Of a stretch of DNA of 21,433 nt, positions 6,540 to 7,160 are shown piece by piece; the first letter of the stretch is position 1, and every line of letters starts with the position of its first letter. The translations under genes and the position numbers were made by a program. Origin of the DNA: a virus. The notes below the pieces were generated by a model. It was not told the origin of the DNA. It ran no database searches and saw only the letters and a program-made list of their open reading frames with translations. The stretch lies in UHGV virus genome UHGV-0131019. The stretch is one strand, 5' to 3'.

Positions 6540-7160
6540 ATGACTCAAAACTATGAAGTGATTGTGAAAGGGATCCGCAATTTTGAGAATAAAGTTACGG
6601 TAACTTTAGCGTTACGGGACAAAAACCGCTTTGACGGTGAAATTTTTGACCTGGACATCTCGCTGGACCGTGTTGAAGGTGCCGCGCTGGAGTTTTATGA
6701 GGCAGCAGCCAGAATGAGCGCCAGGCAGGTCTTCCTGGGAGTGTCAGAAAAATTGTCAGAAAAAGTTGAGTCTTATCTGCAGCATCAGTACTCCATTAAG
6801 ATTGAAAATCCTGCCAATAAACACGATCGTCCTCATCTTGCGGGTTATGGTAGTGCAGTTAAAACCAGCACCGGGCGCGCAGAGCAGGAAAAAAACGCCG
6901 TGGATGACATAAGTCGTGCGGTGGTTACTGTGGAGTTTCCGGGGCACGTGGCGTCAAGAGTGAAAGTTGGGAATGGTGGTGCTCCTGTGCTGACGAAAAT
7001 AATCGGCAGCAAGGTCAGTGTCTGGCTTGATGATGAAGAAGTGTTGTCGCTTATGTACAAAGAAGATTACGACCCGGTAATAACAACTTTCAGTGATCAC
7101 GAAGCAAGGGCAAGAGAGTACGCTTTATCGGTATTTGCAGCGATGCGAGCCGGGAATTAG
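6540..7160 (+). CDS. Hypothetical 206-aa protein inserted between holin and endolysin
   Basis: ORF starts 5 nt after the holin stop with GGAGAG upstream. Soluble, no TM segment, no motif recognised. GC content similar to the backbone. Confidence 0.7.
   Translation: MTQNYEVIVKGIRNFENKVTVTLALRDKNRFDGEIFDLDISLDRVEGAALEFYEAAARMSARQVFLGVSEKLSEKVESYLQHQYSIKIENPANKHDRPHLAGYGSAVKTSTGRAEQEKNAVDDISRAVVTVEFPGHVASRVKVGNGGAPVLTKIIGSKVSVWLDDEEVLSLMYKEDYDPVITTFSDHEARAREYALSVFAAMRAGN

Follow-up and report, generated by a model that had tools for sequence, protein, structure and literature searches.

The locus described here is closest to lysis cassettes of the phage 21 type. The cassette of phage 21 itself presumably runs S21-R21-Rz21, with no gene between the holin gene S and the endolysin gene R. 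In the Qin prophage of Escherichia coli K-12, the order is essD/essQ-ydfR-rrrQ-rzpQ, and ydfR encodes a protein of 103 amino acids (aa) that belongs to Pfam family PF07041 (DUF1327; YdfR, P76160). The isolated lambdoid phage mEp460 likewise encodes a YdfR-family protein of 104 aa (YP_007112129) between holin and lysozyme. We analyzed a stretch of 21,433 nucleotides (nt) of the virus genome UHGV-0131019 (the window), which represents the late region of a lambdoid prophage, and within it an open reading frame (ORF) of 206 aa that starts with ATG and occupies 6540..7160 on the + strand. This ORF fills the position that presumably holds no gene in phage 21, the same holin-lysozyme slot as K-12 ydfR, and encodes a long, two-domain form of the YdfR/DUF1327 family. 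Members of this family are accessory genes of enterobacterial lambdoid phages, and their usual place in E. coli is the late operon, between an S21-type holin and a signal-arrest-release (SAR)-type lysozyme.

Residues 1-93 of the ORF product match PF07041 across the whole profile (1-93/93) with 158.4 bits (expect value, E=5.5e-47), compared with a gathering cut-off of 25 bits, and it is near certain that the ORF encodes, at full length and with both domains, a protein of the YdfR/DUF1327 family. An initial annotation of this DNA had described a soluble 206-aa ORF with its own Shine-Dalgarno sequence between an S21-type holin and a SAR-type lysozyme, a description with which the ORF, Pfam, and hydropathy data agree; its statement that the sequence could not be recognized is superseded by the DUF1327 match. 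Six PHROGs match the ORF, five of which share the N terminus and diverge after it; all six are labeled "unknown function" and none "lysis." No match was obtained in NCBIfam or PADLOC, and no function could be assigned from Pfam, PHROGs, NCBIfam, PADLOC, or the PDB. The predicted product has a mass of 22.9 kDa and an isoelectric point of 5.6. No membrane segment was detected (maximum Kyte-Doolittle value over 19 residues, 0.77) and no signal or export sequence was found; the product is, as predicted from its sequence, cytoplasmic. The ORF is a genuine coding sequence and not a chance ORF, because it combines the DUF1327 match of 158 bits, ratios of nonsynonymous to synonymous substitution (dN/dS) of 0.22 and 0.28 in its C-terminal half, and occurrence of the exact protein on 26 public contigs. 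The 90% cluster of the protein holds 18 sequences named "hypothetical protein" or "Qin prophage protein," nearly all listed ones being 206 aa long, and the intact 206-aa form is found on more than 100 contigs. Repeats within the ORF are short and weak. An RNA element within the ORF was rejected, as Rfam gave no match across the whole window, and an antisense gene was rejected, as the minus-strand ORFs are short and unsupported.

The junctions of the ORF are tight on the holin side and wider on the endolysin side. Four bases (TTCA) separate the holin stop codon (6533-6535) from the ATG at 6540, and a Shine-Dalgarno-like sequence read from the DNA, GGGGAGAG (6525..6532, + strand), lies within the final holin codons and places its GGAG core 9 nt ahead of this ATG. 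A gap of 53 nt separates the end of the ORF from the endolysin start. A consensus scan of the + strand found no promoter-like or terminator-like site from the holin start to the endolysin start, and on this basis separate control of the ORF, by a promoter or terminator of its own that would set it apart from the late operon, was rejected. As there is no such signal between holin, ORF, and lysozyme, late-operon expression is the natural expectation, in line with what had initially been proposed.

The product divides into an N-domain (aa 1-75; 6540..6764), a linker (aa 76-121; 6765..6902), and a C-domain (aa 122-206; 6903..7157), all encoded on the + strand. The N-domain is the DUF1327 core (PF07041 positions 1-75/93, E=2e-37, 127.7 bits). 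The linker is predicted to be disordered, with predicted local distance difference test (pLDDT) values of 25-36, and represents one of several alternative middle modules found in the family. The C-domain belongs to no Pfam family, with no match even at E<=10, and is recognized by phrog_11851 (E=7e-8) over residues 129-199 only. Its DNA is present in 21 of 5426 complete E. coli genomes and near-identical in strain LR-45 only; within the phage collection, the window C-domain was not found in this gene, 0/100 matching records covering at least 80% of the protein. The dN/dS of the C-domain is 0.22 against a 243-aa form of the protein and 0.28 against a 328-aa form, and, judged from these comparisons, the C-domain is a genuine conserved domain under purifying selection. 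Twelve of its residues are invariant in homologues down to ~30% identity (I155, G156, V159, L169, Y173, E175, P179, T183, R190, A191, Y194, and A195), and the core common to long forms and homologues reads IG.KV.V.L…L.….Y.E.Y.P..T…Y.ARA..YA. The C-domain also occurs as a stand-alone gene in strain TUM1881, upstream of a holin and an M15 peptidase.

The 243-aa (P0002/P0003) and 328-aa (P0015) forms share the N+C architecture and carry extra C-terminal modules that are absent from the window ORF. Five distant homologues (P0161, P0168, P0169, P0170, and P0171) consist of an N-like domain and the C-domain with 26-51% local identity to the window ORF, and terminate directly after the last helix, at the same end point; P0161 and P0170 are named from Salmonella enterica, and the other three carry no source name. 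N-domain, linker, and C-domain together appear to form a complete architecture, because five distant two-domain homologues end where the window ORF ends. The TAG stop codon of the window ORF aligns with a GAG codon of the 243-aa form, and a defective truncation of that form was rejected as its origin since P0161, P0168, P0169, P0170, and P0171 share the end point. Unlike the window ORF, the genes for P0161 and P0168 lie upstream of a holin, have long coiled-coil-like inserts, and neighbor other holin and endolysin types, either Phage_holin_8 with Phage_holin_3_7 and CHAP or Phage_holin_2_3 with lysozyme. As a separate observation, many long genes of the DUF1327 family have at their 3' end, either behind it or overlapping it, an opposite-strand ORF of 74-93 aa, which was seen after the 243-aa form and after P0161 and P0168 (− strand; L003 4674-4955, L002 3702-3983, L006 2824-3063, L008 2786-3010, and L009 5828-6052). 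A conserved small antisense partner gene was dropped from consideration, as these ORFs are 20-33% alike across groups and absent from the window.

The DUF1327 family is mosaic, with a constant N-terminal segment of ~75 residues followed by alternative middle and C-terminal modules, and total lengths of 103-328 aa. Junctions were mapped by pairwise blastn of the window against related loci. Against mEp460, positions 6200-6738 match at 98.5% identity (from the methyltransferase gene through codon ~66 of the ORF) and 7199-7747 at 89.8%, and the variable segment 6739..7198 (+ strand) has no DNA similarity; past codon ~66, the mEp460 gene continues into a tail unrelated to that of the window (…AGLCEGDELLPETRPCSEARYTIKINS…). 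Against K-12, 6308-6837 and the sequence from 7198 onward match, and 6838-7197 is unmatched. The right-hand junction at ~7198-7199, 15 nt ahead of the endolysin ATG, is common to mEp460, K-12, a locus encoding the 243-aa form (L003), and one encoding a 328-aa form (L007); in two further loci (L002 and L005), similarity to the window restarts at 7208. The window allele is itself recombinant: its first ~66 codons are mEp460-like, and compared with LR-45 (L001), codons 76-206 are identical and the first 75 codons carry 20 substitutions.

K-12 YdfR is collinear with the window protein to about residue 99 (81% identity in aa 1-72, 84% in aa 1-99) and lacks the C-domain; its stop codon overlaps the endolysin start, compared with the 53-nt gap in the window. 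At the DNA level, removing 6838-7197 from the window gene yields the equivalent of K-12 ydfR (L014 2501-2812, from C600), and the two sides meet at a CCTCAT/CCTTAT microhomology. From these alignments, the K-12 allele, on which the RNase E study discussed below was done, looks as if it arose from the long form by a deletion that took away the whole C-domain. More generally, the 103-aa K-12 protein and most E. coli alleles look like recombinant or deleted derivatives that have kept the N-domain and carry another C-module or none.

The ORF had been taken for an unusual insert in a lysis cassette, a view that comparison with other genomes does not bear out. The same holin-DUF1327-lysozyme order is found in K-12 derivatives (Qin, essD-ydfR-rrrQ-rzpQ), in mEp460, and in other lambdoid and Shiga toxin (Stx) phage records; the DUF1327 gene also lies between holin and lysozyme in LR-45, JP538, and a uropathogenic E. 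coli strain, and on public contigs encoding the 243-aa and 328-aa forms. Each of 10/10 IMG/VR viral contigs with the C-domain has the order holin-(N+C)-lysozyme. One hundred phage records match DUF1327, including H-19B, YYZ-2008, and Stx2c-converting phages, for which the result comprised the DUF1327 match and not the gene neighbors; in those with annotation displayed (e.g., mEp460, ECOR-derived phages, and Stx1a-converting phages), holin, DUF1327 gene, and lysozyme occur together. The gene is thus common at this position in characterized lambdoid phages, and no structural or lysis role has been assigned to it there. The N-domain DNA (6540-6770) was found at 4857 places in 3640 of 5426 complete E. 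coli genomes (~67%), and the S21-type holin DNA (6320-6535) at 6895 places in 4343 of the same 5426. About 70% of S21-type holin loci are therefore likely to carry a DUF1327 gene, an estimate from place counts (4857 versus 6895) and not from locus-by-locus adjacency; on this ratio, a holin gene followed directly by the endolysin gene, as presumably in phage 21, looks like a minority arrangement. Taxonomically, the family is narrow, with 58 clusters at 50% identity among 1.84 billion representatives, and almost all source-named hits are from Escherichia, Shigella, or Salmonella. In the literature, "DUF1327" was found in one genomics paper only, and no paper linking ydfR with holins was found. 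Separately, P0145, a giant protein of 3128 aa from the representative library in which 15 stretches are G2F domains, resembles the DUF1327 N-domain (aa 6-77) six or seven times over, depending on the tool, at 29-33% identity and with a period of 410 residues.

Two AlphaFold2 models of the window protein were built, a first from 12 sequences (pLDDT 50) and a second from 37 sequences (mean pLDDT 56, low confidence). With the 37-sequence alignment, block-mean pLDDT ranged over 53-78 in the N-domain (aa 1-70) and 42-74 in the C-domain. The predicted N-domain comprises strands at residues 5-14, 18-27, and 34-43 followed by a helix at 50-72, residues 67-119 form a disordered linker, and the C-domain (aa 120-204) comprises a short helix, four strands, and a long terminal helix. 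A Foldseek search of the PDB with the first model returned nothing at E<0.001; the two best matches, both above this value, were proteins with tandem double-stranded RNA-binding domains (dsRBDs), a model-based resemblance that is a lead and not a result. A BFVD fold search with the second model returned uncharacterized proteins only, with poor template modeling (TM) scores. Searching the PDB by sequence gave no match with the single protein, and a profile of 37 sequences gave a sole match at E=0.95, which is meaningless. An internal duplication relating the N- and C-domains received 37% probability from hhalign, over 22 helix residues.

Experimental data found for the family concern K-12 YdfR only. 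In a bacterial two-hybrid screen, K-12 YdfR aa 1-72 was recovered three times and interacts with the N-terminal (catalytic) half of RNase E and with RNase G; Rne(1-598) co-purified with Strep-YdfR, as did DNase-resistant nucleic acid, and co-purification of YdfR with RNA is reported (PMC13232886, 2026). Overexpression of K-12 YdfR was not toxic and caused no growth defect (PMC13232886). By homology with the K-12 protein, which is 81% identical over the segment recovered in the screen, the window protein may bind RNase E or act on RNA in a way that matters to the phage. Our overall best explanation, held tentatively and short of an even chance, is that the ORF encodes a two-domain YdfR member that acts late and in the cytoplasm, as an accessory factor, on RNase E or RNA. 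Translated late in infection from the Q-dependent late transcript, the protein would stay in the cytoplasm and, though produced alongside the lysis proteins, be no part of the lysis machinery. Its N-domain would dock on host RNase E, at the catalytic half (and on RNase G), bind RNA, or do both, this docking or binding would modulate RNA turnover in the late phase, and the C-domain would be a second RNA- or partner-binding module or a dimerization module. That the protein works by this mechanism, acting on host RNA turnover through RNase E or RNA, is possible and, taken by itself, doubtful. A more specific version, in which two-domain YdfR would be an RNA-binding factor of the tandem dsRBD-like kind, docked at RNase E/G's catalytic domain, that reprograms or protects late RNA decay during virion assembly and the timing of lysis, we consider unlikely; if it were true, the protein would be a tandem dsRBD-like degradosome modulator, and shuffled C-modules might tune its specificity. 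We know of no degradosome modulator class of such a kind from temperate phages. Phage proteins that target RNase E include T7 gp0.7, T4 Srd, and phiKZ Dip, which are proteins of virulent phages and, for the most part, early products. Should the YdfR-RNase E interaction be relevant in vivo, their likeness to the window protein would be one of functional analogy only; unlike theirs, the window gene lies in the late operon of a temperate phage, and no sequence or fold relationship to them was found.

Several points weigh against an action on RNase E or RNA. The evidence for it comes from one study of a tagged, over-expressed K-12 protein, in which few transcripts were altered upon overexpression and the authors could not exclude a contaminant as the RNA binder (PMC13232886). 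In LR-45, PGAP calls the allele a pseudogene "missing C-terminus," yet the 206-codon frame is intact. Pooled over seven loci, the ratio of nonsynonymous to synonymous differences (pN/pS) is 0.68 for the N-domain (6540-6764), a sign of weak purifying selection among E. coli alleles, and the holin and endolysin of the same loci have values of 0.14 and 0.11, in a calculation whose pairs are not independent and to which recombination between alleles contributes; the N-domain ratio exceeds 1 in several close allele pairs. Such a high value fits relaxed constraint or an arms race, and an arms-race or dispensable gene explains it at least as readily as a conserved surface for docking to an enzyme.

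An arms race is the core of one competing explanation, a counter-defense or host-takeover moron in which a constant N-terminal adaptor would present exchangeable C-terminal effector or decoy modules, swapped under selection and produced late to neutralize a function of the host or of a competing prophage. The extreme C-terminal mosaicism would be explained in this way, with lengths of 103-328 aa and at least five alternative modules behind the constant N-terminal ~75 aa, as would the pooled N-domain pN/pS of 0.68 next to 0.11-0.14 in the flanking lysis genes; the surroundings are also rich in accessory genes (the methyltransferase upstream, a PD-T4-10-like pair downstream, and an opposite-strand DUF6731 gene). 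The raised pN/pS may equally signify relaxed constraint, however, and the mosaicism may merely mark the S-R recombination junction; moreover, no target is known, and the protein has no PADLOC match and no sequence or confident fold match to a known anti-defense protein. We regard a moron as rather unlikely. Of a late anti-defense factor or a cargo gene, both suggested initially, the data speak neither for nor against. Another explanation is a functionless passenger, a decaying or chimeric remnant at an S-R recombination hot spot that has stayed open by chance and hitch-hikes with the lysis genes. Many alleles are truncated, frameshifted into the endolysin leader, or fused (e.g., P0026, P0008, and P0104), PGAP pseudogene flags are attached to the window allele and others, phage 21 is understood to lyse without such a gene, and the high N-domain pN/pS is again in keeping. 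Conversely, dN/dS is low in the C-domain (0.22-0.28) and also in the N-domain when compared with a distant allele (0.24), the two-domain layout and end point are kept at ~30% identity in other phage backgrounds, the intact 206-aa form recurs on more than 100 contigs, and the Shine-Dalgarno sequence and its spacing are conserved, and a passenger without function is very unlikely.

The location of the gene would be explained most directly by a lysis-timing regulator, a cytoplasmic factor acting on pinholin triggering or SAR-endolysin release, and this was one of the roles suggested initially. The 4-nt gap to the presumably co-transcribed holin gene and a position conserved in thousands of E. coli prophages are consistent with it; in K-12, overlap of the ydfR stop with the rrrQ start suggests translational coupling to the endolysin, and PMC13232886 cites a genetic screen that lists ydfR among genes important for the integrity of the envelope. 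The absence of a membrane segment or export signal is harder to reconcile with such a role. Holin and SAR-endolysin regulators such as S21-71, lambda S107, T4 RI, and Mu gp25 are membrane or periplasmic proteins. Judged by its topology, its PHROG matches, and PDB sequence searches, the product does not resemble S21-71, lambda S107, T4 RI/RIII, P1 LydB, or Mu gp25. The distant homologues P0161 and P0168, upstream of the holin, stand beside unrelated holin and endolysin classes, as does the stand-alone C-domain gene of TUM1881, K-12 ydfR overexpression gave no growth defect, and pinholin S21-68 and SAR endolysin are alone sufficient for lysis in trans (PMC9239132). A dedicated lysis role is disfavored because of the unrelated lysis partners of the homologues, the cytoplasmic product, and the sufficiency of S21-68 and SAR endolysin; the suggestion of a lysis regulator is weakened accordingly, and we consider it improbable. 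The four explanations thus rank in the order of a factor acting on RNase E or RNA, a moron, a lysis-timing regulator, and a passenger.

The genes flanking the ORF form a cassette of the phage 21 type. The upstream gene (6320..6535, + strand) encodes a 71-aa S21-type class II, pinholin-like holin that matches PF04971 (Bacteriophage P21 holin S; E=2e-35) and phrog_9876/phrog_20 ("holin"). Its N terminus, MKSMDK, contains the MKSM dual-start motif of S21-type holins, it has a single strongly hydrophobic stretch (Kyte-Doolittle 1.72), and it is annotated as essD or class II holin in matching genomes; its pinholin behavior is putative. Downstream of the ORF, 7214..7747 (+ strand) encodes a 177-aa SAR-type endolysin of the T4-lysozyme family (PF00959 Phage_lysozyme, E=5e-24; phrog_7, endolysin). 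Its N terminus is weakly hydrophobic and Ala/Gly-rich (maximum Kyte-Doolittle over 19 residues, 1.78 at residue 9), and it carries the E-X8-D-X5-T motif; N terminus and motif are the features by which SAR endolysins are recognized (PMC9239132). An Rz-like i-spanin (DUF2514) follows at 7726..8265 (+ strand; PF10721, E=6e-45; phrog_312, "Rz-like spanin"). Embedded within it in the +1 frame, an ORF at 7943-8215 has an L-T-S-C lipobox and a proline-rich mature part; by its sequence, this ORF resembles an Rz1-type o-spanin, and the lysis cassette would then be complete. With a dual-start S21-family holin, a SAR N terminus and the E-X8-D-X5-T triad in the endolysin, and Rz/Rz1 spanins, the context is that of a phage 21-type pinholin/SAR-endolysin cassette, the flanks resembling those of phage 21 in the PF04971 MKSM holin, the SAR-like lysozyme with E-X8-D-X5-T, and Rz with its embedded Rz1-like ORF.

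In the wider region, gene order begins with RusA, KilA-N, DUF968, antiterminator Q (2726-3103), and two opposite-strand accessory genes, and continues with a DNA methyltransferase, the lysis cassette, a two-gene accessory pair, and DUF1441 (10470-10964); beyond DUF1441 lie further long + strand ORFs, e.g., one of 700 aa at 10964-13066. The opposite-strand genes encode a 150-aa protein of no family (3147-3599, − strand) and a 310-aa protein with a DUF6731 match (3614-4546, − strand; E=3.5e-11), neither with a PADLOC hit; placed between antiterminator Q and the late genes, they look like a moron or candidate defense island. Directly upstream of the holin, 5200-6252 (+ strand) encodes a 350-aa N6/N4 DNA methyltransferase (PF01555; PADLOC MTase_II, E=1e-152). 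Between methyltransferase and holin is a terminator-like GC-rich hairpin with a T-run, GGCCACGTCAGGTGGCC TTTTT (6259-6275). The order methyltransferase-holin-DUF1327 recurs in mEp460 and on contigs with the 243-aa form. The accessory pair between Rz and DUF1441 comprises overlapping + strand ORFs of 156 aa (8406-8876) and 430 aa (8873-10165; DUF6575). Both resemble PD-T4-10 components weakly, _A with E=1e-5 over most of the model and _B with E=2.8e-4 over aa 32-89 only; the pair is also present in LR-45 and may be a prophage-borne two-gene defense system.

Both the family (Pfam DUF1327) and the place of its gene (ydfR in K-12) have been catalogued before, and in this respect the finding is largely ordinary and overturns nothing. 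What is new is that this allele displays the full two-domain architecture, that its C-domain is conserved and unnamed, and that K-12 YdfR looks like a deletion derivative. No function has yet been found for the N-domain, which occurs in ~67% of complete E. coli genomes, recurs in many records of Stx-converting phages, and belongs to a phage cassette that is among the most thoroughly studied. The K-12 protein that has been studied probably derives from a longer one by truncation, a point to be considered in any experiment on YdfR; given the RNase E data, the long form would be the more suitable reagent for learning whether host RNA decay is manipulated by lambdoid phages in the late phase of infection.

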